DNA of 64,000 nucleotides, from contig OY762069.1 in assembly GCA_963665095.1 (NCBI GenBank), positions 3,424,001 through 3,488,000 of the forward strand, written 5' to 3'. A model generated the notes under the pieces. The model was given only the letters and a program-made list of their open reading frames with translations. It did not search any database and was not told the origin of the DNA. Source of the DNA: an uncultured Desulfobacter sp. (GTDB lineage: Bacteria; Desulfobacterota; Desulfobacteria; Desulfobacterales; Desulfobacteraceae). Position numbers and translations under genes: made by a program. Below, piece after piece: positions 36,338 to 58,521 of this stretch (its first letter is position 1; each line of letters starts with the position of its first letter).

Positions 36338-37024
36338 TTGCTGTACCGGAACGGGCCTGAATCAAGATGGATGTTATTGTTTGAAATCCGGTTTTTTATT
36401 GTCCTCCCCCTTTCGATAACAGCATATGGATTATCGCATACGAAATATAATGAAAAATACGGACGGCACCTTATCTGCGGCACAGCAGCCAGATCACAGC
36501 CCGCGATTTGTGGACCAATGCCTGATAAAATGTCCTATGTTATATGCTTAATTGACATTGACCATTTCAAACAAATAAATGACACATACGGCCATGAATA
36601 CGGCGACTCAGTCCTCAAGGAGATGTGCGCCCGGATTAAAAAAACAGTCAGAAAACAGGATATCTGTATCCGCTGGGGAGGCGAAGAGTTCCTTATTATA
36701 CTAAGGAACATCAACGCCCTATCTATCCGGGAAGCCACTCAACGTATTCAGACAGCTGTCTCATCAACTTCATTCTCCATTGGAAACCATGATCTCAGGG
36801 TAACGATCTCAGGCGGCATCTATCCGATCCTGCCCTGCTCTGTCGCCAACTTCACCGAAGTTGACACCCTTATAAACATTGCCGACAAAGCCCTTTATTA
36901 TGCCAAAACCAACGGACGGGATCAGTTTATCATGGCCGAGTGTGCGGACGATCTGCCTTGTACCAAAGTTGAGCGGTTTCAATCCACGCCCCCGCATGGA
37001 GGGCGACAATACACAACAATTTAA
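36338..37024 (+). pseudogene. GGDEF diguanylate cyclase fragment; reading frame ends inside the CRISPR array
   Basis: DIDHFKQINDTYGH, RWGGEEF, ADKALY.AK..GRD. No DxLTG N-terminus; the stop lies in the first spacer. Confidence 0.7.
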
Positions 37025-40000
37025 CTATTGGCAGCTTCCGTGTTTCAATCCACGCCCCCGCATGGAGGGCGACAATCGAATCAAGACTGTCTTTACAAAT
37101 AGGAGATGTTTCAATCCACGCCCCCGCATGGAGGGCGACAACTGTTCGCGATTATATCAGGGCGCATTTACTAGTTTCAATCCACGCCCCCGCATGGAGG
37201 GCGACACATCGTATTGTCTCCGTTTGCCGGGATCGGTTCCGTTTCAATCCACGCCCCCGCATGGAGGGCGACCATAAGGCCGGAAAAAATGTAAGTTTCC
37301 AAGCCGGTTTCAATCCACGCCCCCGCATGGAGGGCGACGTACATCTTTTATTCAGCATTCAGTCAGAATGCTGTTTCAATCCACACCCCCGCATGGAGGG
37401 CGACGCCCCACTTCAACCAATTTTTAAGGAGCAAAAATGTTTCAATCCACGCCCCCGCATGGAGGGCGACCTTTGAGATCACCAAAATCGCACCACTCAC
37501 TGTGTTTCAATCCACGCCCCCGCATGGAGGGCGACCTGTCGTCTGCCGCTGCCTGGCCTGATAATCATTGTTTCAATCCACGCCCCCGCATGGAGGGCGA
37601 CCTGTCCGGGTTTGGTTATTTGGCAAAAAAACCGGTTTCAATCCACGCCCCCGCATGGAGGGCGACTGAAAATAGTACATTTTGCAGATGTCCATTATGA
37701 TGTTTCAATCCACGCCCCCGCATGGAGGGCGACAAATCTCACTGTACACAAGGACCGCAGCATAATGGTTTCAATCCACGCCCCCGCATGGAGGGCGACC
37801 CAGCACGTCTGCCCCATCCAAATTGATATCGTCGTTTCAATCCACGCCCCCGCATGGAGGGCGACACTGATCTTTCTCCCGTCACAACACACCTAACAGG
37901 TTTCAATCCACGCCCCCGCATGGAGGGCGACGCGCCTATGGATCAAAACCAAACACTTCGCCAGGTTTCAATCCACGCCCCCGCATGGAGGGCGACCACG
38001 GAGAAAACCCCAAAGCCAAACTGCGGGTTGTTTCAATCCACGCCCCCGCATGGAGGGCGACAACAGTTCTGGCGATTTCCTTGACACGATAAACGTTTCA
38101 ATCCACGCCCCCGCATGGAGGGCGACAGCAGGTGATGTGGTGGCTGGAAAAACAATTGTGTGTTTCAATCCACGCCCCCGCATGGAGGGCGACGACCACC
38201 ATGAAGGTCCCTTCCAGCGGTGCCCAGTTTCAATCCACGCCCCCGCATGGAGGGCGACGTCAGAGTCCCACACCCGCCAGATCATCAAAGAAGTTTCAAT
38301 CCACGCCCCCGCATGGAGGGCGACATGATTTGGAGTATGCGCTTGACTGGGGGGCAGGTGTTTCAATCCACGCCCCCGCATGGAGGGCGACCAGCGTACC
38401 CACTACCATAATCTGATGAAAGTTGATGTTTCAATCCACGCCCCCGCATGGAGGGCGACATTTACTCATTGTCGTCTCTCCTTGTAAAAAATCGTTTCAA
38501 TCCACGCCCCCGCATGGAGGGCGACAAAGCTGCATAAAATGTGTTATATTTAGAGGCTTGTTTCAATCCACGCCCCCGCATGGAGGGCGACTTACTACCA
38601 AGCAACAAAAAATGTAGTAAATATTGTTTCAATCCACGCCCCCGCATGGAGGGCGACAGGCACTTGGAGTAGGATTGCCTGTTTTTCGACGTGTTTCAAT
38701 CCACGCCCCCGCATGGAGGGCGACTTATTTCCCGGCCCGTGTATGTTCCAACGGATTCGTTTCAATCCACGCCCCCGCATGGAGGGCGACAAGGACACAA
38801 ATTTTGACCGGTTAGCTTTTAGCCGTTTCAATCCACGCCCCCGCATGGAGGGCGACATAATTTTATGTTTATTTAGCCCTATCAATTCCCCGTTTCAATC
38901 CACGCCCCCGCATGGAGGGCGACTTTCGAAATATAGATGTGTTGCAAGCCAGTGACGGTTTCAATCCACGCCCCCGCATGGAGGGCGACCAGATGTTAAA
39001 AAAGGCCTGTTCTAATCCGCTTTCGTTTCAATCCACGCCCCCGCATGGAGGGCGACGTCCGGATCACTGACCGGCCCGCAGTCCGCTTTTGTTTCAATCC
39101 ACGCCCCCGCATGGAGGGCGACAAGCACCGCCGTCGTTACTATGTCTTTTGTCGATGTTTCAATCCACGCCCCCGCATGGAGGGCGACTTTGCCGAAGTC
39201 CAGCAAAAAGGCCCGCAGGTTTGTTTCAATCCACGCCCCCGCATGGAGGGCGACTTCGTTTTGCCATATCCTGTGTTACCCTGGTTCGTTTCAATCCACG
39301 CCCCCGCATGGAGGGCGACCGGCAATGCTGCCATCGGAATTACGGATATTCATCCGTTTCAATCCACGCCCCCGCATGGAGGGCGACGCCCCTGACTTTC
39401 GTGCTTCCGTCGAATTTGTTCTGTTTCAATCCACGCCCCCGCATGGAGGGCGACCTTTTTCAAGGTCCGGATGCAGTGGGACATTGCGGTTTCAATCCAC
39501 GCCCCCGCATGGAGGGCGACCCTCCATGATGGCCATGTTCGTCACTCCCACAGACGTTTCAATCCACGCCCCCGCATGGAGGGCGACAGTCAACAGAGTC
39601 CGACGGCCCGGCCACATGGATGTTTCAATCCACGCCCCCGCATGGAGGGCGACCGATACCGGTAATTTTCTTTCAACGGTCCACCTGTTTCAATCCACGC
39701 CCCCGCATGGAGGGCGACGCGTCACCAGACGGGGTAATTCCCGCGCCAGCCAGTTTCAATCCACGCCCCCGCATGGAGGGCGACAACTTCATACATGTCT
39801 CCGTTCAAAAGGAACGAGTTTCAATCCACGCCCCCGCATGGAGGGCGACCTGCTGGTGCGCGTGCCGGCCCCTTCATATTTACGTTTCAATCCACGCCCC
39901 CGCATGGAGGGCGACCTGCCCTCGGGCAATTCGTGCCGGTTCTGAAGGGTTTCAATCCACGCCCCCGCATGGAGGGCGACACCATCTGCCGATTAGATGT

Positions 40001-40841
40001 GATTAATACCAGTAGTTTCAATCCACGCCCCCGCATGGAGGGCGACTTGAGTTGAGGATATGGCAGAATAAATAGCAAAGGTTTCAATCCACGCCCCCGC
40101 ATGGAGGGCGACTAGGGGTTTTAACCGGTCTTGAGATCGCTTTTTTTGTTTCAATCCACGCCCCCGCATGGAGGGCGACTCCGGCAAGGGCCCGGGCATG
40201 ATCAAGTTTATTTGTTTCAATCCACGCCCCCGCATGGAGGGCGACGTGAAATTTTGGTTCGGCTGATTTCCCCCTGGTCTGTTTCAATCCACGCCCCCGC
40301 ATGGAGGGCGACCTACCGCCTCAAAAAACCAGGCCTCCTCTTCAGGTTTCAATCCACGCCCCCGCATGGAGGGCGACTCTGGCTAAAACAGGCTTTTTAG
40401 CCAGATCAGCCTGTTTCAATCCACGCCCCCGCATGGAGGGCGACATCCGGCACTGCGTTTGTGGGCCGGTTTTTTCCGTTTCAATCCACGCCCCCGCATG
40501 GAGGGCGACTTGTCATCCGTTGTTGGCCGTTGTTGTCATTGACGTTTCAATCCACGCCCCCGCATGGAGGGCGACGCATGTGACCGGCACAAACTGGTTG
40601 GCGTCGTCGGTTTCAATCCACGCCCCCGCATGGAGGGCGACCTGCCTAAAAGTGATGCCATGTTAATGGCATTCACTGTTTCAATCCACGCCCCCGCATG
40701 GAGGGCGACATCGTTAGAGCAAGACAGCGCATACTGGGTAGACGTTTCAATCCACGCCCCCGCATGGAGGGCGACACTGTTCCGGTTGTGACAGTTACAG
40801 AGCGAATCCGTTTCAATCCACGCCCCCGCATGGAGGGCGAC
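36976..40841 (-). CRISPR. type I-C CRISPR array, leader-distal half (59 repeats by my count)
   Basis: 32-bp repeat GTCGCCCTCCATGCGGGGGCGTGGATTGAAAC (minus strand), about 66-bp period, spacers 33-36 bp; one variant repeat at 37373. Confidence 0.98.
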
Positions 40842-40998
40842 CTGGGTAAAAGCCCGTTTTTGAGAATGATCACAAAAAATCATGGAAAAATTAAAGATAA
40901 TTTGCAAGATATGCCAGGGATGAGGCAGAAGCTCCCCCGTTTATCTCGCAAATAATCAATGGAACTTCTGCCCCTATTACCCTAACAGGGCAGGAGAT

Positions 40999-41574
40999 AT
41001 GCTATCAGAACTTATTAAAAACAAAAATCTTTTTTTCCATCTTTACGAAATCGATAAAAATACAGCAAAACAGTACAGACAGTTGCCTTGTCCGCATTGT
41101 GGAGGCCCCTTATATTTCAGCAATTACATGCGCAAGCCCCGGGGAGAGCCTGAGGGCGTGCCGGAGGAATTCTTTATTCAGTTCAGCCTATGTTGTGGAA
41201 CCGAAGGGTGTCGCAAAAGATTGATGCCGCCGTCCTGCCGTTTTCTGGGGAGAAAAGTCTACTGGTTTGCAGTTATTCTGTGTGTTTTAACAGACTGGCA
41301 AAATACCAATGAAAAAATCACCGTTTATGATTTGTCCATACGAACTGGCATTAGCCGGAACACAATAAACCGCTGGCTTGCCTTTTTTCAGGATACATTT
41401 CCAGTGAGCCGAACCTGGCGAAGGCTTCGGGGGCAGATATCCGCTGGTGTCAGTAACAGCCGTCTGCCGTCAAGTTTCATCAATTATTGCCGGGCGGTGA
41501 AATCCAACGCCGAAAACGCACTTGTATCAAGCCTGATAATCTTATCAGGCGGGTCCAAAATCAGGGCCGGATAA
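40999..41574 (+). CDS. transposon accessory protein, Cys-rich zinc finger plus HTH
   Basis: CPHCGG...CCGTEGCRKR; LSIRTGISRNTINRW. Confidence 0.7.
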   Translation: MLSELIKNKNLFFHLYEIDKNTAKQYRQLPCPHCGGPLYFSNYMRKPRGEPEGVPEEFFIQFSLCCGTEGCRKRLMPPSCRFLGRKVYWFAVILCVLTDWQNTNEKITVYDLSIRTGISRNTINRWLAFFQDTFPVSRTWRRLRGQISAGVSNSRLPSSFINYCRAVKSNAENALVSSLIILSGGSKIRAG

Positions 41575-41680
41575 TCTCGCGCAGAGGATGAACATAGACA
41601 AATATATGCAGGCTGTTTTACCACCTGATTTCAGACGTTGATCCGAAATTTTAACCTGAAATTAAAAAGGAGCCTGATTT

Positions 41681-43126
41681 ATGAGTGGTAAAACACAGCA
41701 CCCGGCAGACCTGTGGGCATTATTTCGCTTTTCGGTTATCGGCGGTTTACTGGCACGCCCTCCGGCAAAGGGAGAGTTGCAAAATGAACTGACCCGGCTC
41801 GCAGGTCAAATCTATTCTCATCCTGTGACGAACAAACCGACCTGTTTTCATTTTTCCACAATTGAGGCCTGGTATTACAGGGCAAAAAATTGCCAGGACC
41901 CAATTCTGGCTCTGGGCCGTAAAGTTCGTTCAGATATGGGCAAATCCACAGCATTGAATGCTGAATTGATCCGCCTTCTTGGTGTCCAGTACAACACTTA
42001 TCCGCAATGGAGCTATCAGCTTCATTGCGACAACCTGGCAGCTGAAATCGCTGAACAGGGCCTGTGTGAGAATCCGCCGTCCTATGCAAGTGTGAGAAGG
42101 CGTATGGTTGAACGGGGTTGGAGAAAAAAGGCTTCCAAGAACAAAAATCAAACATCCGGACAGAAATCAGCTTTTAAGCGATTAGAAACGTATGAAGTCC
42201 GTAGTTATGAAACCGAAAACATCCATGAATTATGGCATCTGGACTTTCACGAATGCAGCAGGCGCGTGGTGGACGAAAAAGGTCAGTGGCATACGCCCAA
42301 GGCATTGTGCATTCTTGATGATCGCTCCCGTCTGTGTTGTCATATTCAATGGTATTTGAATGAAACGGCAGAGGTTTTGATCCACGGCTTGTCCCAGGCG
42401 TTTTACAAAAGAGGGCTTCCCAGAGCCTTGATGACAGATAATGGTTCTGCCATGATTGCTCATGAAACCGGCAACGGACTTAAACGATTGGGCGTCAGTC
42501 ATGAGACCACGTTGCCATACTCGCCCTATCAAAATGGGAAGCAGGAAGCCTTTTGGGGTACACTTGAAGGCCGTTTGATCGCCATGCTGAGCCGGATGGA
42601 TTCTTTGACCCTGGTATATTTAAATCAGGTCTCCCAGGCCTGGATCGAGATGGAATACAACAAGTCAACCCATGATGAAATTCATATGTCGCCATTGCAA
42701 TGCGCCCTTGACGGCAAGGATGTGTCACGTCCTGCACCGGAACCTGAACAGCTTCAATTTTCGTTTACAGCCTGTGAATCCAGAAAACAGCGTCTGTCCG
42801 ATGGTACCATCTCTTTGATGGGCATCCGGTTTGAAATCCCTTCACGGTTTAATCATATCCAGCGTCTTCATGTCTGTTTTTGCTCCTGGGATAAATCGGT
42901 TGCCTGGCTGATAGATAAACGAACCGGAAATAAGCTTGCCGCAATTTATCCCCAGGACAAGACAAAGAATGCTTCAGCAATCCGTCGTATCAAATCCACT
43001 CCGGATGAAATTAACCCTGGCCATGAAACCCTGTCCGGATCAGAACCGGCCCTGCTTAAAAAGCTCTTGTCCGATTATGCAGCAACCGGAATGCCTTGTG
43101 CCTACTTGCCAATGGAGGAAAAGTGA
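41681..43126 (+). CDS. DDE transposase (rve core; IS481/Mu-like)
   Basis: WHLDF, ILDDRSR, TDNGS, PYQNGKQE; Mu-like C-terminal DGTISL.G.RFEIP. Confidence 0.9.
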   Translation: MSGKTQHPADLWALFRFSVIGGLLARPPAKGELQNELTRLAGQIYSHPVTNKPTCFHFSTIEAWYYRAKNCQDPILALGRKVRSDMGKSTALNAELIRLLGVQYNTYPQWSYQLHCDNLAAEIAEQGLCENPPSYASVRRRMVERGWRKKASKNKNQTSGQKSAFKRLETYEVRSYETENIHELWHLDFHECSRRVVDEKGQWHTPKALCILDDRSRLCCHIQWYLNETAEVLIHGLSQAFYKRGLPRALMTDNGSAMIAHETGNGLKRLGVSHETTLPYSPYQNGKQEAFWGTLEGRLIAMLSRMDSLTLVYLNQVSQAWIEMEYNKSTHDEIHMSPLQCALDGKDVSRPAPEPEQLQFSFTACESRKQRLSDGTISLMGIRFEIPSRFNHIQRLHVCFCSWDKSVAWLIDKRTGNKLAAIYPQDKTKNASAIRRIKSTPDEINPGHETLSGSEPALLKKLLSDYAATGMPCAYLPMEEK

Positions 43127-43950
43127 TGAACAGCAAACGATTATTGGCTTATTATGGATTGAAGTACAATCCTTTTTTACCAAATATTCCTGTGGACTCA
43201 TTATGGCATCCACCCCGGATGGAGGCATTTATTACACGCCTTGAAAATATGACCATGAACGGTGGATTTGCATTAATCGCCGGTGAACCCGGTCTTGGCA
43301 AATCCAAGACACTACAGGCGATTGCCCATCAGCTTGGCAAGCTTGATGAAGTCGTTGTCGGCGTTATGGAGCGCCCCCAAAGCAGCGTGGCCGATTTCTA
43401 TCGGGAAATGGGGACACTGTTTGGTGTCAATTTGAGTCCGGCCAACCGTTACGGAGGGTTCAAAGATCTGCGGCAACGATGGAAAAATCATATTAAAACA
43501 ACCCTGTTCAGACCCGTCCTGCTCATTGATGAGGCTCAGGAAATGCTTACCGGATGCCTGAATGAGCTTCGGTTGCTCAACAGTATGGATTTTGACTCCC
43601 AGAATTTATTGACCACCATTATCTGTGGTGATACCCGGCTGCCGGAACGGTTCAGAACCAGTGCATTGGTAGCCCTGGGGAGTCGACTCCGGTTCCGGTT
43701 AAAATTGGATCCTTATACCCGGGAAGAATTGTTGGATTATATAGCGCATTGCCTAAATCAGGCCGGAGCTCCTCAACTCATGACAAAACCTTTAATCACC
43801 GCTTTGGTAGAGCACTGTACAGGAAACTTACGGGTCCTCAATAATATGTCGGCAGAACTGCTTGAAGTGGGCGTTCAAAGAGAGCTGCCGCAACTGGATG
43901 AGAAACTTTTCATAGAGCTTTTTTCACTGAAACCGTCGCCAACCAGATAA
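43126..43950 (+). CDS. transposon AAA ATPase (ExeA/TnsC/MuB-like)
   Basis: GEPGLGKS, LLIDEAQ; ATG overlaps the transposase stop. Confidence 0.85.
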   Translation: MNSKRLLAYYGLKYNPFLPNIPVDSLWHPPRMEAFITRLENMTMNGGFALIAGEPGLGKSKTLQAIAHQLGKLDEVVVGVMERPQSSVADFYREMGTLFGVNLSPANRYGGFKDLRQRWKNHIKTTLFRPVLLIDEAQEMLTGCLNELRLLNSMDFDSQNLLTTIICGDTRLPERFRTSALVALGSRLRFRLKLDPYTREELLDYIAHCLNQAGAPQLMTKPLITALVEHCTGNLRVLNNMSAELLEVGVQRELPQLDEKLFIELFSLKPSPTR

Positions 43951-43961
43951 GAGGTATAAAA

Positions 43962-44204
43962 ATGACAATCAATGAAACACAACTTGAAAAAACAATGGCT
44001 GAAATTGTCGACGAGCTGGGCAATCTGGTCATGGAGTTGATCCTTGTCAGTTTAAAAAAAATAAACTCGGAAAATCATCTTTTGACAGAATTGCTGGAGA
44101 TCAAACAAGAGGAACAAAGAGAAAATGAATTTTATGGTTTTGGTGAAACGGAGCCGGGACATCCTGGGGAGGAAACCCGGCAAGGGATAGCCAAAAGCAG
44201 GTAG
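43962..44204 (+). CDS. small acidic hypothetical protein of the transposon
   Basis: GAGG RBS, 80 aa, followed by a terminator. Confidence 0.55.
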   Translation: MTINETQLEKTMAEIVDELGNLVMELILVSLKKINSENHLLTELLEIKQEEQRENEFYGFGETEPGHPGEETRQGIAKSR

Positions 44205-44221
44205 CATTGAATAATGCGCCG

Positions 44222-44253
44222 GGGGAAGCGGGGTTGACCTGCTTCCCCTTTCT
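44222..44253 (+). terminator. rho-independent terminator inside the transposon
   Basis: GGGGAAGCGGG-GTTGA-CCTGCTTCCCC-TTTCT. Confidence 0.7.
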
Positions 44254-44419
44254 GTATTATTCAAGCTTTCCTGCTCATGCCTTAAAAAACCCAATAAAAT
44301 CAGTCGGAGCGCAGCGACATCTGCTAATCATTGAAAATACAGTTATGCCTTTCCCTGATTTATCCTGATTGTCGCTCCATTGATTATCGTGCTTCCTCTC
44401 ATTTTACCCAGATCGACCT

Positions 44420-47400
44420 GTTTCAATCCACGCCCCCGCATGGAGGGCGACACATTTGGACAGTCAACGGTGTAGAGATGGTTTTTGTTTCAATCCACGC
44501 CCCCGCATGGAGGGCGACCTTAGCTTTTAAATACGTAGCGCAGTTGAACAAGTTTCAATCCACGCCCCCGCATGGAGGGCGACCGAGTTTTTGATACCAT
44601 AATCGTTTACAAGGAGTGTTTCAATCCACGCCCCCGCATAGAGGGCGACTGCCTAAAAGTGATGCCATGTTAATGGCATTCACTGTTTCAATCCACGCCC
44701 CCGCATGGAGGGCGACCAGCAGGGCATAGTCAAACGGCACGTTCAAGGGCTTGTTTCAATCCACGCCCCCGCATGGAGGGCGACTCTGTGGATGTTTTAA
44801 GGGTTTGTTGTCAGAGTTTGTTTCAATCCACGCCCCCGCATGGAGGGCGACCGTAAAGAGCGAATTGCAGTTGATGAACGGCAGCGTTTCAATCCACGCC
44901 CCCGCATGGAGGGCGACACGGTGACCTTGATGCCGCTGATGATGTATGTGCCGTTTCAATCCACGCCCCCGCATGGAGGGCGACAAGTAACAACCGCTGG
45001 GACAAGAGTTGTTACACTGTTTCAATCCACGCCCCCGCATGGAGGGCGACCATTGTGCCCAACTTTAGGGCCAACGTGTCCCGTGTTTCAATCCACGCCC
45101 CCGCATGGAGGGCGACTATTTTCCCTGCCGGTGTGGGGCAAAAGGTTGATGTTTCAATCCACGCCCCCGCATGGAGGGCGACCATTGTGCCAAATTTTAG
45201 GGCTAACGTGTCCCGTGTTTCAATCCACGCCCCCGCATGGAGGGCGACATTATTTTTCAATCAATTCAATGTTTGTGGCGGTGTTTCAATCCACGCCCCC
45301 GCATGGAGGGCGACCAGAGTCACCAAGGGAGACTTGTTTAAGGGCTTGTTTCAATCCACGCCCCCGCATGGAGGGCGACACAAAAATTGTTACACTGCAG
45401 AGGAGGCAATAACGTTTCAATCCACGCCCCCGCATGGAGGGCGACCATCTGCAGCTCTTTTTTACCAGGGTCCATATACGTTTCAATCCACGCCCCCGCA
45501 TGGAGGGCGACCGTCAGGCGTGTCTGTGGGACATTAAGTATCACATGTTTCAATCCACGCCCCCGCATGGAGGGCGACCCAGACCCAGACCCAGACCCAG
45601 ACCAATGCTAAGTTTCAATCCACGCCCCCGCATGGAGGGCGACCACAAACCAGACCAAATCTGAGACCAATGCTAAGTTTCAATCCACGCCCCCGCATGG
45701 AGGGCGACCGTCGAAAAACAGACAATCCCGCTCCAAGTGCCTGTTTCAATCCACGCCCCCGCATGGAGGGCGACCAAGAGCTGTTACACTGCAGAGGAGG
45801 CAGCAACGTTTCAATCCACGCCCCCGCATGGAGGGCGACCCCAATGTTTTCAGTGACTTAGGAGCAATACTGCGTTTCAATCCACGCCCCCGCATGGAGG
45901 GCGACGCAAGCACTTTAGGGGTTTGTTGGCGGAGTTTGAGTTTCAATCCACGCCCCCGCATGGAGGGCGACGCGCGAAGAGAGGCGCTGGATTCGTTTCC
46001 TTCCCGTTTCAATCCACGCCCCCGCATGGAGGGCGACCTGCAGCCTTTTCTTTGGGGGAAGTAGAGTCATTGTTTCAATCCACGCCCCCGCATGGAGGGC
46101 GACTCCCGTTTGGCGCTGAATTCAGCGCTGAGGTGTACGTTTCAATCCACGCCCCCGCATGGAGGGCGACGCCTAAAAGTGATGCCACGTTAATGGCATT
46201 CACTGTTTCAATCCACGCCCCCGCATGGAGGGCGACACTACTGGCCATTGTGCCAAATTTTAGGGCCAACGTTTCAATCCACGCCCCCGCATGGAGGGCG
46301 ACACCTTTTGCTGCTGGCGTTCCTGTCATAGTTATTCGTTTCAATCCACGCCCCCGCATGGAGGGCGACCCGCATGGCTTTCACTGCTTCCCATGTTCCA
46401 GGCGTTTCAATCCACGCCCCCGCATGGAGGGCGACCGCATGGCTTTCACTGCTTCCCATGTTCTATGCGTTTCAATCCACGCCCCCGCATGGAGGGCGAC
46501 ATAGGTGATCCCGATTTTCCAGACCTGCAATATGTTTCAATCCACGCCCCCGCATGGAGGGCGACACCCAACCAAACCGGGTTAAAAGCGGACAAAACCG
46601 TTTCAATCCACGCCCCCGCATGGAGGGCGACGACTATAGGCCGCTTAAATCAGGCGGGATCAGCTGTTTCAATCCACGCCCCCGCATGGAGGGCGACCCA
46701 AATGTTCCAGCTGTTCCGGCTGTTACAACGTGTTTCAATCCACGCCCCCGCATGGAGGGCGACGCGACTTTGATGCCGCCGAGGACGTATGTGCTGTTTC
46801 AATCCACGCCCCCGCATGGAGGGCGACCCCAATGTTTTCAGGGACTTAGGAGCAATACTGCGTTTCAATCCACGCCCCCGCATGGAGGGCGACTTTCTCT
46901 TTCAGCTACTCCGATGTCCCAGTCCACGTTTCAATCCACGCCCCCGCATGGAGGGCGACATTATTCAGCCTCCCCCATCACCCGGTACCGGCCGTTTCAA
47001 TCCACGCCCCCGCATGGAGGGCGACAGGGCGGGATTTGAACCCGCGATGTGCTGAGGGGTTTCAATCCACGCCCCCGCATGGAGGGCGACCTGGTTGTGA
47101 GCTGGTAAGCAAGCGCCAGCTCACGTTTCAATCCACGCCCCCGCATGGAGGGCGACAACTTGCTCCCATGCCCTACTACTCCAAGCCCGTGTTTCAATCC
47201 ACGCCCCCGCATGGAGGGCGACTCGCGGCAGCGGCCGTGATACCGCCCCTGTCACCGTTTCAATCCACGCCCCCGCATGGAGGGCGACCCAATGTTTTCA
47301 GGGACTTAGGAGCAATACTGCGTTTCAATCCACGCCCCCGCATGGAGGGCGACGCTCTAATTTGCAGTATAGATAACTATACCGCCGGTTTCAATCCACG

Positions 47401-48276
47401 CCCCCGCATGGAGGGCGACTTGTCATGAAGATAGACGCGCTTATAGACAAAATGTTTCAATCCACGCCCCCGCATGGAGGGCGACAAGACCCACGCCCCG
47501 CCTTTTGTCTCCACATCCTGTTTCAATCCACGCCCCCGCATGGAGGGCGACCGCCGGACTTGCGGAAATATTACCGGGTGGTCAGGTTTCAATCCACGCC
47601 CCCGCATGGAGGGCGACTGGGCGCGTTCAAAAAAGACAAACCACTTTTCAGGTTTCAATCCACGCCCCCGCATGGAGGGCGACTCGCGATTGCTATTTGA
47701 GGCTTTATATCGCGGTTGTTTCAATCCACGCCCCCGCATGGAGGGCGACCAGCCCGGTTAGTTGGTGCACCTACCTGCGTGGTCGTTTCAATCCACGCCC
47801 CCGCATGGAGGGCGACTCTTCAATCCCGTTCATAATGAGATTGTTTTAAGCGTTTCAATCCACGCCCCCGCATGGAGGGCGACGTAGAGCATAGTCAAAC
47901 GACCTGTTCAAAGCTTTGTTTCAATCCACGCCCCCGCATGGAGGGCGACCGCCAGGCATATGAAACGGATGAACAGTATGAAGTTTCAATCCACGCCCCC
48001 GCATGGAGGGCGACCAAGATTTTTTTCAAACAACTGTGCCTTCTCCCGTTTCAATCCACGCCCCCGCATGGAGGGCGACTGTCAGGCACCACAACATCCT
48101 CTGCAGGTGTCGTGTTTCAATCCACGCCCCCGCATGGAGGGCGACCCCAAAATACGCTATACAGATGGAAAAGCACTTGTTTCAATCCACGCCCCCGCAT
48201 GGAGGGCGACACCCGCAACCGGTCTATGGATGTTTTAAAGGCCCGTTTCAATCCACGCCCCCGCATGGAGGGCGAC
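44420..48276 (-). CRISPR. type I-C CRISPR array, leader-proximal half (59 repeats by my count)
   Basis: Same 32-bp repeat; one variant at 44618; ends at the AT-rich leader next to cas2. Confidence 0.98.
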
Positions 48277-50544: not shown

Positions 50545-51822
50545 TTAAAATCCGACCTCCCCAATATAAGGAAGGGCACCGTATCGTCCCTGAAGATACC
50601 CCTTTTCCAGCGCATCCCTTTTACAAGGATGAAAATCGGATAGCGAATAAAGCTGTGTGGCAGACGCGTTATCCTTTTCCACAAACCAGATCTGATCCCA
50701 TCTTAAAATTTTTAAATCCAGGATGGATGTATCATGGGTGGAAAAGACAAGCTGTCCATTGGCCTTATTAGAGACACGATTATGGATCATCCGAAGCAAA
50801 AACCGAATCATATGAGGATGAAAACTATTATTTAATTCATCAACAATCAATACCCGTCCATTTGTCAAAAGATCCAGCCAGGGACCGGCATAGGCAAAAA
50901 TTTTCTGCGTCCCAGCCGACTCATCCTCCAGTTTGAACGAGGTGGTCTGCTCCGAATCATTCATTTTATGGATGAATTCAACCTGCTTGAAACCTGTCCC
51001 GTTCAAATCCGTTGCTATTTTTTTCTTCAGCTCTCCGGGAACATTATCAGGCATTTTAATTTTATCTGTACTCAATTTGTCTGTTTTAATCCGGATGCCA
51101 TCCAGATTAACATCCGCACCTTTCATAAATGCCAGCACAGTGTTTCTGACAGTTTCTTCCTCACATTGTTCAATGGTAAACCCGGGATCAACATTCACCC
51201 CATGTCCGATAATCATCAATTTTTTAAACCAGGCAAACACTGGTTTTAACTGTTCACTGTTCAATTGCACAGCAACCGACAGGAAAAGGGCATTGGGGCG
51301 TGTATTCTCTTTCCATGTTTTTTTATTTCCGGCGAGTTTATTGCCCAAAGACCAGGCTTCTTCACCGGTTTTAGAATCAAATGAACGCTCAAACCATCGT
51401 TGAGGCCGGCTTTCCGGGTATGCCAGAAGCCACTCCCCGGTAACCCGTGCCTCATTACATGCAAATCCGTATTGGTACCGTACCTCGTCCTGGATAAAAA
51501 AAATCTCAAGTTCTGTTGACTCTGAAAGTCCCTGAGAATTCAGTCTGAATGGGAAACGATTGATAGTGTCTCCATCCTGTCCATGTCTGGAAGAGTCCAG
51601 GACAAAGCGCTGCATAAAGCCAAGCGCAGAAATCAAATTGCTTTTGCCCGCCCCATTGGGTCCCCAAATAACAGCAGACTTTAACAGTTTCAATAATCCC
51701 TTTATGGGGGTATCAAACACATTGCTGTCCTGCAGATCCTTAATGGCATTGCCTGCCGTCATGCTAAGGGTCTGCTGTTCCCACACAGATTTATAATTTT
51801 TTACACTGAATTCAATAAGCAT
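50545..51822 (-). CDS. ABC-type AAA ATPase (AAA_21/RloA/AbiEii-associated type)
   Basis: FSVKNYKS, GPNGAGKSN, ESAGT, LIVDE, FSTHD, YLQGRYGALP. Confidence 0.85.
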   Translation of the reverse strand: MLIEFSVKNYKSVWEQQTLSMTAGNAIKDLQDSNVFDTPIKGLLKLLKSAVIWGPNGAGKSNLISALGFMQRFVLDSSRHGQDGDTINRFPFRLNSQGLSESTELEIFFIQDEVRYQYGFACNEARVTGEWLLAYPESRPQRWFERSFDSKTGEEAWSLGNKLAGNKKTWKENTRPNALFLSVAVQLNSEQLKPVFAWFKKLMIIGHGVNVDPGFTIEQCEEETVRNTVLAFMKGADVNLDGIRIKTDKLSTDKIKMPDNVPGELKKKIATDLNGTGFKQVEFIHKMNDSEQTTSFKLEDESAGTQKIFAYAGPWLDLLTNGRVLIVDELNNSFHPHMIRFLLRMIHNRVSNKANGQLVFSTHDTSILDLKILRWDQIWFVEKDNASATQLYSLSDFHPCKRDALEKGYLQGRYGALPYIGEVGF

Positions 51823-51886
51823 GATGCATTTTCCAAATTTGGAAAAAAACAAAAAAACTGCATTTTTTGCAATGAAAATATAATTT

Positions 51887-52702
51887 CTATTGTTTTAGGC
51901 TCCGGTTTCTTTGTTTTTCATGGACCTCATCCACAAGATCCATGGACACTTTCCAGACCTGTTCACAAAAGGCTGAAAACGCGTTTAACGCCTCCGGTTC
52001 CGGCAACAGTTCACCACCACCTTGAATCTGTCCGACAGCGTAATGATACTGGGACAGTGCATCAATATAGGTTTTGCGCGCTTCCTTTGGCACAATGACG
52101 GGCGGCAGGCCCGCCTTTAAGACCGGCAGGTTGGCAACAAGTCTTGCCATCCTGCCGTTACCATCAAAAAAGGGATGAATGTGAACAAAGGAGACATGAA
52201 GAGCAACATAAGCCTGCAATGCCGTTTCTCTATCCCCGGGCACAGTTGATGACATAAGCTTATGATAGAGCGTAAACCACTTTTCCATAAGTTGGGGGAC
52301 ATCTTCGGGCAATGCATACTCAAAGACCACCTGTTTCTCATCCACCACGCCCACAGTGGAGTTGGGCTCTTTTTTCCAGCCCCCCACAGGTTTGTATATA
52401 TCAACAACCACATGGGTCTGAACCGCTTTGTGAAGATTGAACAGCGCCTCTTCATCAAAAGATCCCCCCTGGTCCAGCAATCCATAAACCAGATCAATGG
52501 CCCTGGCATGACCCACCACCTCCTCATGGTCCTTGAGGGGCTTGCCCGAAACGGTCAAGCCCTCTTCAAGAACAAAGGCGGTTTCACCCAAAGTCAGGGA
52601 GTTGCCCTCAATGGCTGTGGAGGTGTGGGTCCACAGGTTGCGCAGCTGGGTTATCAGGGCTTTTTGGAGGTCTTTGTCAAGATCCTGTAAAAAATAAAGC
52701 AT
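51887..52702 (-). CDS. Fic family protein
   Basis: HPFFDGNGRMAR catalytic motif; N-terminal inhibitory STAIEGN. Confidence 0.9.
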   Translation of the reverse strand: MLYFLQDLDKDLQKALITQLRNLWTHTSTAIEGNSLTLGETAFVLEEGLTVSGKPLKDHEEVVGHARAIDLVYGLLDQGGSFDEEALFNLHKAVQTHVVVDIYKPVGGWKKEPNSTVGVVDEKQVVFEYALPEDVPQLMEKWFTLYHKLMSSTVPGDRETALQAYVALHVSFVHIHPFFDGNGRMARLVANLPVLKAGLPPVIVPKEARKTYIDALSQYHYAVGQIQGGGELLPEPEALNAFSAFCEQVWKVSMDLVDEVHEKQRNRSLKQ

Positions 52703-52732: not shown

Positions 52733-53596
52733 TTACATCAATTCCTGAAAGGTGACACCGCTGGGGATCTTGTCTTTATCTATAGAGACAGAATAATCAC
52801 TAAATTGACGAGCAGGTCTGGAAGAGTCTTCCCGTTCGATTTTTATCGTATCAAAAAGTGTATGCGCGTGGGCATTGCCCAGCTCGCTATCATGCTTGAA
52901 GACAATCAACTTACGGCTGCTCATAAATCCACGGGCGGCGGAGCGGTCATGTTCAAACATGTTGCTCAAAGCATTCCAAAGTAGCTCCAGGTCTTCACCG
53001 CTAAAACCTGTTTTAGAAGCTAAAGGAGCTGAGATAAATCCTTTTGACATATACAAACCATAGGGGACGATATGTTTCCGCCCCATGGTCCTTTCTTTTT
53101 CCAGATCTCTTAAATTTGTGACTGCCATGCGAGTAATACTGATTTCCTGGGAAAAAATCGGCTCTACGCTTTTAGCAAAAGCGAATTGGACAGGCCCCCT
53201 GACTTGACCACAATTAACTTCGGTGGTCATTACTGCCCCAAAGGCTCTCACATCGAAAAAATTACTGCACATCCAGCCGGTAACTTTTTTAGCATCTTCT
53301 TCTTTTTTAGGAAGCTTTTTTTTCTGAGGTTCAAGATCATATTCTTTATAGGCCAATTTGTTGGTTTCATTGAGTACAGCTTTTTCTTGAATATAAATAT
53401 TATATCCCGGTTTGCCGTCCATAAGAATTGAAACATGATTTCTTATTTTACGTTTGAGGCAGACATCGGTTACCAGGCCGTACCCGGTTTCAGGATCAAA
53501 CCGGGGCAAATTCCCTGCATCAGGGTCACCATTGGGGTTCCCGTTTTCAACATCAAACAGCAGCACAAATTCGTACCGGTTAGCAATCGCAGTCAT
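52733..53596 (-). CDS. cas7: type I-C Cas7/Csd2
   Basis: [40 protein letters not shown]. Confidence 0.97.
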
Positions 53597-53599
53597 GAT

Positions 53600-55366
53600 T
53601 TAAACCTCCTCATTTTTTTTAGTAAAAAAGCTTTTACGCTGATGATAGTATCCAATCATAAAAAGCCCTTGCGCCTCTGCAGGAAGTGTTGCCGGGAAAG
53701 CGTCAAACTTATCCACGATTTCCTGAACCAGTCTTTCAAAATAGGTTGCCCGTCCCGTTTTTTCAGGATCTTTTCTAAGCTTAGCAATATGATTGGTTGA
53801 ATTCTTTAAAATCATGTGGAAAACAAGTCCCGGTGTAGCCGAAGCAGATGAAAGATAACGGTCTTTCATGGTTGCATTGGCACCGGGAATCGCCTCTTCC
53901 TGTGCTTTTTCCAAAACTGAAAAAAGACGACCCAATAGATACGATCCATCGGTTCTCTCAATGTCCAGCGTCATGGTTACCTCCTTTAAATTAGTCGCGG
54001 TTGAATTGCGCATAAGAAAAGCTTTAAGCATAGCAGCTCGAAAATAGGTTATATTGTGTTCACTGCGAATACGTTGAAGAACAAGCGGTAACAAATTCTG
54101 CGGAAAAGCAGAACCTGTTAAAATTGCGCGGGCCATGTTGCCTGCCAATACCGGTGAAACATTCTCACTTTTCCCTTGAGAAGCTGTTTGACAGAGCAGA
54201 CGCCAAAGCGGCGGGTATTCAGGCTCATTTTCGAACTGCCTTGCAATGGAAAGCTGGTCAAAGTAATTACTTATTCTTTTTAACAGGTTGCCGAAACTGT
54301 CCACTTCCCAAAAACGAATGGAAAGTCGGGCTGCATTGGGCGATAATCCTAAAATAAAAAACCGAATCGAATCATCCAGGTCCGGCATTATATCTGTTAC
54401 TCTACGGCCGTCTTTGACCGCACGTAAAAGCCCACGTATCTTTTCGGCTGTTTCCTGGTCATCCTGGTTCTTTTTCGAGGGATCTGTTTCTATTTCAGGA
54501 GGATCAAAAAGATCCGCAAAAAGGTCTTCAGCCGGACTGGGTTTTTCAGCCCAGAAAACCAGCGTCATGTCGCCGATGGTAATATGCTGGCGGCTATTAG
54601 ACGATAACAGTGAGTTTAAGGCTGTGGTATAGGCAAAGGCTGACATTTCACTTACAGCAGCTTTATCTTGCCCATAGGAGACAAATGCCGTTGCATTGTA
54701 TGAAACGATATACCCCCCTGATGTTTGCCCTCCCCTGACTCCTTTTATCGGGGTATGAACTCTGGCTTGGGGGACATCTTTTTCACCATTGACCATACAT
54801 TGGATACTGGGAGCGCTGTTTGACTGCTCAACGTATTTCAACCAGGCGTTGCGGACAAGGCTTCGCTCATGAATATAACCGGTGGTTCCATCCAGCCGAA
54901 ATACAAAATTAGCGTTACACAGGTCATCCCAGGAATGATATTCTATAAGCACAGATTCAGTTTCCTGGCTATTCCATTGCTGGAGAAAGGCTAACACGGC
55001 GTGAATAGCGTTATCTTCTATGCCTTGGCACACTTCGCTGATTAATCCTTGAAAAGCTTCAAACCGCGATCTATTATCATCTGTAGGCCCATCGGAATCA
55101 GCCCCCAGCACATAGGCCGCCTTATCCCACAAAAAATTGGCTTTTACACCAGATGTCCTGGTAACTGCGGCTGGCACAGGGATCATTCTGGGGATTAATT
55201 TCCTTCCACTTTGTTCCCTTAAATCATCCACGCCCTTGAGTGATCCTTTATCATCAATAATCAAGGCAAATGAGATCTTCTCAATACTTGTGCCAAACGG
55301 CGGCATCCCGGAGTCTGAGTCTGCAGCCACTCTTTCATAGTAACTGTTTAAGGCCTGGAGAATCAT
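53600..55366 (-). CDS. cas8c: type I-C Cas8c/Csd1
   Basis: [36 protein letters not shown]. Confidence 0.95.
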
Positions 55367-56028
55367 GATTTTACCTCCGAAGATAAAGGAGAGGGCGGTC
55401 TGATAATTCCGTTTTCCATAACAGCTTTAAAAAAAAGAGGGGTTTGATTGTTATTAAAATCTATGTCCAGCAACATATACCCCAAATCCTTAGAGTATCC
55501 GTTATAGCAAGAGACCGGAATTTCATCTTCCAGCAGTTCGAAAGCGGCGGGGAACTCCCGGCATCCTAAGCACGGCTGATGAAAAAACTGCCCATTTTGT
55601 GCCCGTCTGTTAAAGATACTCAGATGCTTGCCTTCGTTATCATCACTACCGGCCTTATCCGTCATTTCAAAATGCGCCTCAATGATATAAGCGACGTCCC
55701 TGAGCAGGGTAGTCGCACGCTGCTGTCTGTTTTTACCGTCATCGACAAGATAATAAAGACGTTTTTCCTTGCTCATAACCGTGGAGGGATTAGGTTTAGG
55801 AATCTTAGACGCCACTTCATTGCGGCGGACATTATCGAATTTAATAGGATTTAAAACGTGTATTTTATCAATGACCCAACGAATAGCCGGCTTCCAATGA
55901 ATTGCTTCCAGAATACCTCGAGCGGCCGAGGGCGTCATAACATCATAAGATACACGTTCCACTTTCATCTCCGGGCGGGTAAAGCAGGCATAATCGCCCC
56001 AGACCTTCAACTTGATTCCAAATGCCAT
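55363..56028 (-). CDS. cas5: type I-C Cas5 (Cas5d)
   Basis: [28 protein letters not shown]. True start is ATG 56028 after AAGGAG, not the track start 56091. Confidence 0.95.
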
Positions 56029-56050
56029 AAATTGTCTCCTTTTTAGAGAT

Positions 56051-56146
56051 TGCAGGCCATAAATATCATCTGTTTTATAAATGGCCTGCATGCCCTAGCT
56101 GCTTCTACCTAATGTTTCAATCCACATTCCCGTATTCGGAAACGAC
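56051..56146 (-). ncRNA. crRNA-like regulatory RNA: degenerate repeat (56114-56146), 23-nt guide (56091-56113), 3' hairpin (56051-56090)
   Basis: GTCGTTTCCGAATACGGGAATGTGGATTGAAAC keeps the 11-nt handle and an 8-bp stem; the guide matches the PAM-flanked site 56305-56324. Confidence 0.8.
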
Positions 56147-56154
56147 ATATCCTT

Positions 56155-56229
56155 TTATGGGGACTCCAAAACGAGTTCAACATCAAACAGTTCTTTTCCC
56201 CAAATGGCTATTTTAAGCTTTATCCGCAT
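56155..56229 (-). CDS. 24-aa small ORF MRIKLKIAIWGKELFDVELVLESP (candidate CRISPR-repressed toxin or leader peptide)
   Basis: Strong SD GAGGGGGG, ATG 56229, TAA 56155; first ORF after the promoter. Confidence 0.55.
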   Translation of the reverse strand: MRIKLKIAIWGKELFDVELVLESP

Positions 56230-56262
56230 ATGATCCCCCCTCTTTAAATTAATTGCATATTA

Positions 56263-56324
56263 AAAATAGAAGGGAAAAAGTTAATAGTCAAGAATAAATT
56301 ATTCATTAGTTAGAATAAGCTTGG
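56263..56324 (-). promoter_or_regulatory. cascade-operon promoter (TTGACT-N17-TATTTT) with upstream TTC-PAM protospacer
   Basis: -35 at 56286-56291, -10 at 56263-56268; + strand TTC 56302-56304 then ATTAGTTAGAATAAGCTTGG. Confidence 0.7.
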
Positions 56325-56331
56325 TAACTAA

Positions 56332-58521
56332 TCATTGAATTAAACTTCCAACGTCCCAAACATCTGCACGGTCAATCATCAAGCCCACATCACCGCTATA
56401 CGCCCCCTTATTTTGTAATATCGGGATCTCGTCATGAATTAGTTCAATTGCTCCTACAGTATACAACTTGGTGTATTCTCCGGCCCTAACAGCAACCAGA
56501 TAGGGTTGAAGTTTTCTAAGCAGAATCCCTGGAAATTCTGTGTACCTAAGCTGTTCAACCAATTGCTCTGCTTCTGGTTCCCCGGGCACCACAACGCCAA
56601 TCGTATCGTCTTCAATAAACCGAAAATCCCGGGCAACCTCCTTGAAAGGGAACAAAAGATCTTTATCAAGTATCTTGGGATTTAAACGGCGCATGATCTG
56701 TTTCTTATCCAGATCTTCGATGTCATAAAGCAGTTCAAAATAACGCCGCATCACCTGAGTACTCATAGGATCATATTCCGGCATACAGCGTATTGCCTCA
56801 GCGGTTTTCGAAATACACCTGTTAAGCCAGGGCATCCGAGGCTTTTTTTCCGGTTCAAAAATAAAAACCTGCCCAAGCCCTTTCATCTTGCCCTCTCGAT
56901 TACAACGACCGGCAGCCTGAGCAATGGAATCCAAACCAGAGATGGCCCTGAAAACAACCGGAAAATCCAAATCAACCCCAGCCTCCACAAGAGAAGTGGC
57001 AACCACCACACATTTTTTATTTTCACGCAAACGCCGCCTTATTCTCTTAAATATCTGCCTCCGATGCTGTGGATACATATTTGTGGATAAATGAAAAATC
57101 CCGACATTTTTTTTATTTAACAACTCGAATATTTTCCGGGCTTGTGATTTTGTGGCGGCAATACACAACGCCTGGTTCTCAAAATTCATAAGCTGCGCAA
57201 TTTCTTCATCCGTTTTTTTCCCGATAAAAGAGACATTGGTGCGCTTTAATTTTGAAAAAATTAGGTCTGGCTCATCAATTATTTCTTTAATTTGCGGCAA
57301 AGCTGACCGTAAACGACTGGTATCATCAAAGGCCGGTTGAGTTGCTGTGCATAAGACGACGGTACAACCGTAGTGAGCCACCAATTCCCGAAGGGCGGCA
57401 AGGCAAGGTTCTAGATAATCAGCCGGGACGGCCTGTGCTTCGTCTATCACAATAACACTTCGAGCAATATTGTGAAGTTTACGGCAACGGGAAGATTTAT
57501 TATTAAAAAGGGATTCAAAGAATTGTACATTGGTGGTGACTATAATCGGGCAATCCCAATTTTCTGTGGCCAATCCCCGTCGCCGGTTATAAGCAGCCTC
57601 TTCGGGTTCATCAGATTCTTTATAATTGCAATGATGTTCGAGAACTGAATTTCTCCCAAAAATATTTTGGAAAACTCCTGCATTCTGTTCAATGATTGAG
57701 GTGAAAGGAATCGTATAAATTATTCTGTCCATACCATTTTCGACCGCATGATCTAAAGCGAAACTCATGGAAGACAACGTTTTTCCGCCACCTGTCGGCA
57801 CTGTGAAAGAAAAAAACTGTGGCGGTAATTGGGCTTTTCCTTTGCATTGGCCGAATATAATCCTTCGAAGCTTGTTCACATGGGTCGGCTGAGCGCTTGC
57901 AAGAATATCATTCATGTAAATTTCCATCTTGCGTTGAAGCTCAGATATGTTTTTTTCTTGCTGGAATCGCCCCCTTTCTTTTGCAATTTCGGGGGCACAA
58001 AATTTTTCAGTATCTAAAAAGTCAGCGTCAACAAGGCAGGAAAAAATCATTCGAGTAAAAAATGACAAAGAAAAGCCCCCAGTTTCTCTTTCCAGTTTAA
58101 ATGGGAAGTCTAATTTTTTAAGATACGGGTTTATTAAATCAAGTTTTTCAGTTTCATGAGAATTGTTATGCTTTAACCGAAAATGCAACTGTGTCTCCTG
58201 CTCTCCACCGTCAGGAATCCCACCATGATGGCCCGCAATTGCATAAGATAAGAGCAGGCCAAGATTACCACTGCTTTCCTTTGCCAGGCAAGCACCAAAG
58301 GAGGAATGGTCCACTCGTTCTGGACTACCCTCCAATCTTCGTTGAAAAGCTAAAGTTGCTTTTCCGGCATCATGCAGTAATCCAGCCAAATTCCCCCATT
58401 TTTTTGCCTCGAAAGTTCCCGAAAAACAACCCGCCATATTGGCAACATTCGTCAGATGAGTTTCCAGAAGCTGCCATTCTTTTTTTGGTCTCTCTTGTAA
58501 ACTGTGTGCGTAGTATTTCAT
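56332..58521 (-). CDS. cas3: CRISPR-associated helicase/nuclease Cas3
   Basis: YYAHS, LHDAGK (HD), PTGGGKT, DEAQ, QAAGRCNRE; start ATG 58521 after GGAGAGG. Confidence 0.97.
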   Translation of the reverse strand: MKYYAHSLQERPKKEWQLLETHLTNVANMAGCFSGTFEAKKWGNLAGLLHDAGKATLAFQRRLEGSPERVDHSSFGACLAKESSGNLGLLLSYAIAGHHGGIPDGGEQETQLHFRLKHNNSHETEKLDLINPYLKKLDFPFKLERETGGFSLSFFTRMIFSCLVDADFLDTEKFCAPEIAKERGRFQQEKNISELQRKMEIYMNDILASAQPTHVNKLRRIIFGQCKGKAQLPPQFFSFTVPTGGGKTLSSMSFALDHAVENGMDRIIYTIPFTSIIEQNAGVFQNIFGRNSVLEHHCNYKESDEPEEAAYNRRRGLATENWDCPIIVTTNVQFFESLFNNKSSRCRKLHNIARSVIVIDEAQAVPADYLEPCLAALRELVAHYGCTVVLCTATQPAFDDTSRLRSALPQIKEIIDEPDLIFSKLKRTNVSFIGKKTDEEIAQLMNFENQALCIAATKSQARKIFELLNKKNVGIFHLSTNMYPQHRRQIFKRIRRRLRENKKCVVVATSLVEAGVDLDFPVVFRAISGLDSIAQAAGRCNREGKMKGLGQVFIFEPEKKPRMPWLNRCISKTAEAIRCMPEYDPMSTQVMRRYFELLYDIEDLDKKQIMRRLNPKILDKDLLFPFKEVARDFRFIEDDTIGVVVPGEPEAEQLVEQLRYTEFPGILLRKLQPYLVAVRAGEYTKLYTVGAIELIHDEIPILQNKGAYSGDVGLMIDRADVWDVGSLIQ

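Follow-up and report, generated by a model that had tools for sequence, protein, structure and literature searches.

In the type I-C systems of Neisseria, a solitary repeat located before cas5c gives rise to an RNA of 48-50 nt that bears an 11-nt handle and has its 3' end within a hairpin loop, according to the accessible part of Shu et al. (bioRxiv 10.1101/2024.12.27.630466). As reported there, this RNA represses a promoter 5- to 60-fold, the distance between the transcription start and the TTC or TTA target is 37-46 bp, and the repressed promoter drives defence genes located between the target and the repeat, an arrangement referred to here as CRISIS. CreR, in the available portion of Liu et al. 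(bioRxiv 10.1101/2023.03.10.532045), is a degenerate mini-CRISPR guide that targets a site flanked by a protospacer-adjacent motif (PAM) next to the effector cas promoter; it is defined as being without a linked toxin gene, and type I-C examples are listed by prediction. In the type I-F CreTA of Pseudomonas aeruginosa, the accessible text of Wang et al. (bioRxiv 10.64898/2026.06.02.729485) describes a CRISPR-repressed promoter in the gap between cas3 and the effector genes, and a CreT built of a Shine-Dalgarno (SD) sequence, a mini open reading frame (ORF) ending in Pro-Pro-stop and a hairpin, which is toxic only with both prolines. Mini-arrays are present in 7% of the I-C loci (Shmakov et al.), and phage mimics of I-C guides have been reported. 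Here, we describe a cassette of this kind in an uncultured Desulfobacter sp. (contig OY762069.1, positions 3,424,001 to 3,488,000; the whole analysed stretch of 64,000 nucleotides is called the window). The minus strand of the window carries a complete type I-C system, and the cassette fills its gap between cas3 and cas5c. The regulatory circuit is known, and its cargo, a conserved 24-codon ORF, is apparently undescribed.

A first-pass annotation, made from the letters of the window alone, proposed that this gap hides a guide by which Cascade represses its own promoter. The elements of the cassette are:

56302..56304, plus strand: TTC PAM of the guide target
56305..56324, plus strand: partial protospacer, 16/20 identity to the guide, mismatches at positions 6, 12, 13 and 18
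56263..56291, minus strand: sigma-70-type promoter, TTGACT-17-TATTTT, matching 9 of 12 consensus positions
56235..56242, minus strand: SD sequence GAGGGGGG of the small ORF, 5 nt 5' of its ATG
56155..56229, minus strand: 24-codon ORF, MRIKLKIAIWGKELFDVELVLESP-stop, a candidate CRISPR-repressed micro-peptide (CreT-like cargo)
56114..56146, minus strand: solitary degenerate repeat with an 8-bp stem; Cas5c is predicted to cut between 56125 and 56124 and so to leave an 11-nt handle
56091..56113, minus strand: guide, 23 nt, spacer-like
56051..56090, minus strand: 3' hairpin with a 10-bp stem and a 20-nt loop, from the fold; RNA 3' end placed by analogy

The repeat variant is located where it was first proposed and with the same sequence. 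It is 33 nt long, compared with 32 nt for the array repeat, whose last 11 nt it retains. Outside the two arrays, this handle is found in the window at this repeat alone, which is one of 10 non-array matches in the 6.9-Mb genome. The rewritten stem was said to pair still, and it does, with 8 bp closing exactly at the handle (-8.4 kcal/mol; the array repeat has 7 bp), although by itself it scores just z -1.6 against shuffles. The hairpin expected in place of a second repeat is also found (56090-56081 with 56060-56051; z -4.3 for 56040-56100). The Cas5c cut site is placed from the Neisseria experiments (bioRxiv 10.1101/2024.12.27.630466, as far as its accessible text describes them), and by the same analogy a 49-50-nt RNA would have its 3' end 5-6 nt inside the hairpin loop.

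The proposed target, a TTC followed by a 16/20 match at 56302-56324 on the plus strand, is correct in all details including the four mismatches. When the guide is scored over 17 positions (6, 12 and 18 omitted), the target at 56305 ranks first among the 1,141,511 TTN-flanked sites of the genome, with 16/17 compared with 13 for the next best (six sites). The promoter is present at the proposed position, and is weak evidence alone as three such sites are found against 1.5 expected. Transcription would begin near 56256, at a distance of 46 bp from the PAM.

The locus thus has the repeat with its handle, the partial TTC-flanked target and the 3' hairpin of the type I-C solitary-repeat crRNA-like RNAs (CreA/CreR-like; crRNA, CRISPR RNA). 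It resembles the I-C solitary repeat units and CRISIS, as far as described in the accessible text, in its position between cas3 and cas5c, in the repeat-like unit just before cas5c and in the cargo between the target and the repeat. The 11-nt handle, the 3' hairpin that replaces a second repeat, the TTC PAM and the mismatches at 6 and 12 are also shared, and the predicted 46 bp lies at the end of the 37-46 bp range. This match to the Neisseria experiments makes the guide circuit one of a known kind. Like CreR, as partly seen in its description, it combines a degenerate mini-CRISPR guide with a PAM-flanked site next to the promoter from which the effector cas genes are transcribed.

The first-pass annotation suggested that guide and target should covary in related cas3-cas5 gaps, and this is what we find. 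Neighbourhoods of cas5c were collected from relatives, from genome contigs (best 80 of 548) and from metagenome contigs (best 80 of 540). The first two sources provided 38 long-enough regions, two of them from a DNA search; 29 have the canonical handle, and the nine without it were left out. These loci are kin, and all the counts overstate their independence. The guides are mutually unrelated, with a mean pairwise identity of 5.9/20. At TTC sites, cognate guides and targets match on average at 13.6 of 17 positions, compared with 7.7 over 812 non-cognate pairs, and the cognate target is strictly best in 23 of the 29 loci. Without any PAM constraint, the best site is preceded by TTC in 25 of 29 loci, by TTT in three and by another triplet in one. 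Positions 6, 12 and 18 match in 6, 8 and 8 of the 29 loci, the other positions up to 17 in 22-29. In the metagenome set, a solitary repeat is present in 24 of 80 loci, and the PAM-blind site is a TTC in 18 of these 24.

Similar features are seen in the 17 loci that carry the ORF. None of 20000 permutations within this clade reaches the cognate mean, a result inflated by kinship. Sixteen of the 17 have a TTN site with a 5/5 seed match upstream, 13 have a -35 box of the TTG type together with a TAnnnT -10 box close to the PAM, and all have a hairpin 3' of the guide. A repeat stem of at least 6 bp at the handle is present in 12 (mean 5.9 vs 3.2 when shuffled). In L169, L175 and L178, guide and target seem by eye to align by a one-base bulge near position 6 instead of a mismatch.

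The link between guide and target is not in doubt, and judged from these sequences the guide almost certainly represses its own promoter. The core of the autoregulation model, i.e. a solitary repeat that Cas5c would process and a crRNA-like guide by which Cascade would bind, without cutting, beside the -35 box, is well supported by the covariation. The model took the circuit as a pure autoregulation of the cas genes. Since a conserved micro-peptide is the first gene under the repressed promoter, the arrangement is more probably that of CreA/CreT or CRISIS, with autoregulation as one of two outputs.

The stretch between promoter and repeat had been taken as a plain 5' untranslated region, and the conserved ORF at 56229-56155, which is preceded by a strong SD sequence, was overlooked. 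We identified 17 intact copies, each with a solitary repeat and a hairpin downstream: the window, a copy in genome G020 found by DNA search, five genome-contig loci, two from a blind hidden Markov model (HMM) search of 401 genomes, and eight metagenome loci. Both copies from the blind search lie in a cas3-cas5 gap and have a repeat and a target. The length is 24 codons in all 17 copies (L175 has a possible start two codons upstream), and the homologues also have an SD-like motif upstream. The reading frame is open in every copy, compared with stops in 14 and 15 of the 17 in the two shifted frames. Invariant sites are concentrated at the second codon position (3, 9 and 1 of 23 at positions 1, 2 and 3), and the pooled nonsynonymous divergence (pN) of the first seven copies is 0.34, compared with a synonymous divergence (pS) of 0.65. 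As in CreTA and CRISIS, a non-cas gene is located between the target and the repeat unit, here an ORF under purifying selection. From these patterns, the ORF is very likely a translated and selected gene.

Hydrophobic and charged residues alternate in the peptide, whose first half is basic and whose second half, after a Phe-Gly turn, is acidic; the pattern may be read as an amphipathic beta-hairpin. Gly11 is invariant, Glu18 is present in 16 of 17 copies, and in the seven copies examined the N-terminal half has a charge of +3 to +4 and the C-terminal half one of -2 to -5. None of ten peptide members matches Pfam or PHROGs, a PDB profile search gave no match either, and in Rfam nothing comes close to a gathering score. 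A tblastn search of phages and plasmids, a weak search for 24 residues, found no copy. An HMM run over all loci of the set found no copy of the ORF without a repeat (0/17), a count biased by the fact that 13 of the 17 were reached via cas5; the absence of such loci would fit a toxin. We found no account of such a peptide in type I-C loci in the papers searched; subscription papers and preprint supplements may list these loci. Two further leads were rejected. A DNA pattern of the ORF end plus handle has four near-identical matches in viral contigs; they end a longer phage ORF without the family pattern, and by eye are due to chance. A duplicated Cas5 N-terminus has only Trp-Gly in common with the peptide, and most members have Phe-Gly.

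The end of the ORF reads Glu-Pro-Pro-stop in 15 of 17 copies and Glu-Ser-Pro-stop in two, the window and G020. All 17 copies have CCA as their last codon, whereas the invariant Gly11 uses all four of its codons, and the stop is TAG in 12 copies, TAA in five and TGA in none. CCA is not known to be decoded by any tRNA but the UGG one. In this genome, CCA accounts for 10.6% of the proline codons, the lowest share of the four; tRNA-Pro(TGG) has one gene, and none of 3251 long ORFs ends in Pro-Pro (143 end in Pro). Pro-Pro-stop is among the strongest termination-stalling ends and is avoided across bacteria (Hayes 2002, as cited in a later paper). Over-expressed TnaC halts growth by holding tRNA-Pro, according to the accessible part of PMC11890864 (citing Gong 2006). 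Pairing of the ORF end with the start or ribosome-binding site of cas5 was considered as a cause of the fixed CCA and rejected. It gives no locus-specific signal (cognate -10.46 vs non-cognate -10.41 kcal/mol, permutation p 0.47; 0.1 pairs expected in the window), and CCT would pair better.

With respect to cargo, the locus differs from the described systems. In the accessible text, the CRISIS cargo consists of ordinary-size enzymes and membrane proteins (Nezha, Gabija, Sir2, TIR and others), mostly in Neisseria, whereas here it is a 24-residue ORF of Desulfobacterota, normally missed by gene callers. Unlike CreR as defined in its available description, the locus has a conserved ORF, a candidate toxin gene, under the same promoter. 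The locus also resembles the P. aeruginosa proline-codon toxin, which has a CRISPR-repressed promoter in the cas3-effector gap. As partly described, that system is of type I-F, has two repeats and an ORF of 15 nt, and only its codons matter, synonymous proline codons being tolerated. Here, the system is of type I-C, and instead of a minimal RNA-acting ORF there are 24 codons, conserved at the amino-acid level and with a fixed last CCA. Two proline codons precede the stop in 15 of the 17 family members, and the window copy has Ser-Pro. The haloarchaeal CreT tRNA-sequestering RNAs (PMC8501985) and the Acinetobacter CreP protein toxin (PMC12737573), both seen in part, likewise have a small toxin gene under a crRNA-like antitoxin, and the SD-ORF-hairpin build is shared; toxicity here would be by analogy. 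In contrast to haloarchaeal CreT, the start is not followed by conserved pairs of consecutive rare Arg or Ile codons, as codons 2-3 vary freely among the 17 copies and CGG is the commonest Arg codon in the genome, and in contrast to CreP there is no KilA-N-sized protein. TnaC and PepNL (PMC11890864) are also short ORFs with arrest at the stop codon, which is putative here. As far as its accessible text goes, TnaC has Pro24 and depletes tRNA-Pro when over-expressed, and PepNL forms a mini-hairpin in the tunnel; both are metabolic leaders without a CRISPR tie, and no sequence likeness to the window peptide is shown.

We propose the following mechanism. One transcript from the promoter at 56291-56263 would contain the ORF, the degenerate repeat, the guide and the hairpin, followed by cas5c-cas8c-cas7c. 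By analogy with the Neisseria RNA, Cas5c would cut at the base of the repeat stem, and the middle piece of ~49-50 nt would load Cascade and bind at the TTC, which lies 11-13 nt from the -35 box and where ~20 bp of pairing would give repression without Cas3 cutting. The repression would throttle the cas genes, as a negative feedback, together with the micro-ORF. The upstream piece would be an SD-ORF-hairpin RNA, as the known CreT toxins are built. A high crRNA load or anti-CRISPRs would relieve the repression, and a loss of Cascade, or its block by an anti-CRISPR, would lead to over-translation of the ORF. Ribosomes may then stall at the proline-stop and hold tRNA-Pro(UGG), resulting in growth arrest.

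We tentatively regard the cassette as a CreTA/CRISIS-like module of type I-C, with Cascade repressing its own genes together with a ribosome-stalling peptide, a reading that seems reasonable without being compelling. By analogy, the ORF is rather probably a toxin, and given a toxin we lean towards stalling, and not the free peptide, as the toxic act. The Ser-Pro copy of the window may be weaker than the Pro-Pro copies. It is possible, and we put this forward more hesitantly still, that the module represents a fourth class of toxins repressed by CRISPR, as well as type I-C's first micro-peptide cargo. It would consist of a beta-hairpin nascent chain arrested at a CCA-proline and a stop codon of the release factor 1 (RF1) type, trapping the single tRNA-Pro(UGG); Cas5c would cut the toxin mRNA, the guide and the cas mRNA from one transcript. 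It would then be one of several unannotated families in the cas3-cas5c slot across Desulfobacterota and Proteobacteria.

Several observations weigh against a stalling toxin under guide repression. The amphipathic pattern is conserved along all 24 residues, which exceeds the need of a bare proline-codon toxin, and three alphaproteobacterial look-alikes of the peptide end in Leu-Glu-Pro-Ile with mixed codons. The terminal CCA is already enriched in the genome (47 of the 143 Pro-ending ORFs), and the 17 copies are kin and not independent draws. The window and G020 copies end in Ser-Pro, while the P. aeruginosa CreT needs two consecutive proline codons. In L169 and L175, guide and target match at just 8-10 of 17 positions when ungapped. 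Five loci of the same Cas5 clade (L059, L062, L065, L073, L176) have the repeat, guide and target without the ORF, and in L026 the ORF is frameshifted, the repeat intact and the PAM a TTT; these six loci indicate that the guide is selected without the peptide and kept for cas control alone. Finally, the four nearest relatives by Cas5 in which cas5 is intact (L002-L004 and L164, 89-91%) are without any cassette, i.e. it can be dropped whole and cleanly.

The gain and loss of the cassette was followed on a tree built from 43 rows of Cas5. Ten changes of the peptide label are required, at least six of them forced by well-supported branches. Twelve loci, the closest relatives included, have a short gap only and no cassette. 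In L005 and L165, the PAM, promoter, ORF and repeat are all gone together and the hairpin remains; in L005 (genome G006), cas5 is also broken after its first codons by an insertion of ~150 nt, and one match to the handle pattern is found near the locus. In G020 (L027, ~1300-1700), the peptide-repeat cassette lies upstream of cas3 in a distant I-C system, with a Cas5 ~29% identical, which shows that the cassette moves between loci.

The alternative that survives best is a CreR-type autoregulation of the cas genes in which the ORF is a non-toxic leader or arrest peptide. The ribosome at the stop, ~9 nt before the repeat, would protect the RNA or gate Cas5c processing or cas5 translation, in a TnaC-like manner. 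The repeat-only loci and the frameshifted L026 agree with it, as the guide works there without the peptide. So does the distance from stop to handle, 40-46 nt in 13 of the 17 copies, and toxin-free CreR is described and listed for I-C in the available part of bioRxiv 10.1101/2023.03.10.532045. It is less easily reconciled with the lack of any ORF without a repeat, which is expected of something needing repression (with the cas5-based bias given above), with the lack of locus-specific pairing to the cas5 ribosome-binding site, or with G020, where the cassette precedes cas3 and the handle is 95 nt away. Overall we find this explanation rather doubtful.

An unlikely alternative is that the free peptide is the active product, as a toxin or an anti-phage effector under guide repression. 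An amphipathic beta-hairpin with a cationic first strand, a Phe/Trp-Gly turn and an anionic second strand would oligomerise in the membrane or add strands to a host or phage protein, and the proline end would merely shape or protect it. The strict alternation of hydrophobic and charged columns, the charge difference between the two halves (7/7), the invariant Gly11, the Glu18 and the fixed length would all be explained. In addition, the same slot holds other small peptides elsewhere, many with a hydrophobic membrane-like stretch (L085, L093, L096, L102, L104, L115, L121, L128, L131), and the alphaproteobacterial look-alikes keep the strand pattern without a Pro-stop. What it leaves unexplained is the fixed CCA and the absence of TGA stops, and the beta-hairpin is predicted from a pattern that has no Pfam, PHROG or PDB match.

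It is even less probable that the family is a CRISPR-repressed toxin of which the window copy is attenuated or dying, the cassette here acting mainly as a cas autoregulator. In the window the first Pro is replaced by Ser, and neighbouring lineages show decay, by frameshift and TTT PAM (L026), by deletion (L005, L165) or by full loss (L002-L004, L164). Against this, the ORF, the SD sequence and the 16/17 target are intact in the window, the last Pro and its CCA are invariant, and the G020 copy keeps the same Glu-Ser-Pro end at 11/23 identical residues with pN 0.29 below pS 0.49. Pure chance, i.e. a decayed repeat plus an accidental match in an AT-rich region with a promoter that is weak evidence alone, can be dismissed given the first genome-wide rank of the target, the covariation across unrelated guides and the permutations (inflated by kin).

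If the peptide is toxic, type I-C systems would bear very small anti-anti-CRISPR switches that are invisible to gene callers, and many I-C elements taken as toxin-free CreR may be CreTA modules. The 24-codon Pro-Pro-stop genes with their fixed CCA form a compact natural series on the proline-stop translation arrest, a question left open by the P. aeruginosa paper. The module is also of relevance when I-C Cascade operons are moved between hosts, and when anti-CRISPRs are applied to sulfate and metal reducers.

On the minus strand cas3 is followed by a 303-nt gap, cas5c, cas8c, cas7c, a Fic gene, an AAA ATPase, cas4, cas1c, cas2 and two array blocks. The main features of the system are:

56332..58518, minus strand: cas3 (HD and helicase), the upstream gene, TIGR01587 and TIGR01596 above the cut-off
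55363..56028, minus strand: cas5c, with its SD sequence AGGAG at 56040-56036
53600..55366, minus strand: cas8c
52733..53596, minus strand: cas7c
36976..48276, minus strand: CRISPR array, two blocks of 59 repeats with an insertion element between them, a competing source of crRNA

The cas3 stop codon is 7 nt away from the distal end of the target. No terminator was detected on the minus strand within the cas3-cas5 gap, and the cassette may therefore also be supplied by read-through from cas3. The cas5c at 55363..56028 is the only copy detected in the whole genome. The same-genus relative Desulfobacter curvatus has a Cas5 at 91%. The locus is found whole, with the gap unchanged and no joint, in contigs from two of four sequencing runs; these are possibly the source of the window itself and give no support. 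The 116 array spacers gave one partial genomic match (4 mismatches, no TTC), which is uninformative about the PAM.

The Fic-domain gene (51887-52702) starts 30 nt past cas7c and is followed by an AAA_21 (AbiEii-like) ATPase (50545-51852), both on the minus strand between cas7c and cas4, and both are possibly part of the Cascade-repressed transcript. The insertion element that divides the array (40924-43950, plus strand) has three genes, coding for an unknown protein, an rve integrase-core transposase and an AAA_22 ATPase. Many array spacers at 44400-48300 overlap or recur, within and between the blocks, which suggests primed acquisition against one element.

An inverted cassette is present in three alphaproteobacterial loci (L090:5806-5886, L124:2915-2995 and L130:5794-5874 on the minus strand). 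It codes for a beta-hairpin-like peptide of 26 residues ending in Leu-Glu-Pro-Ile, and its promoter would face away from cas5. Comparison of the Desulfobacterota and alphaproteobacterial peptides gives an hhalign probability of 40% over 13 columns. An HMM search of 401 genomes of the phylum had L064, already in the set, as its sole match, and one of 401 genomes of an alphaproteobacterial order recovered the seed alone; both peptide types are thus rare in the sampled genomes.

Other small ORFs, of 32-62 residues, are located before the solitary repeat in L085, L093, L096, L102, L104, L115, L121, L123, L128 and L131, and in L178, L179, L184, L185, L201, L210, L220 and L223. In most, a hydrophobic stretch comes after a short alternating strand, and at least two recurring families can be seen by eye. 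The two that were searched have no Pfam match; as a group these ORFs are candidate membrane toxins. Larger cas3-cas5 gaps of ~860 nt are found in L095, L113 and L127. In L095 and L127 the solitary repeat lies upstream of the insert, and L113 contains an ORF of 70 residues that, by eye, resembles HicA.

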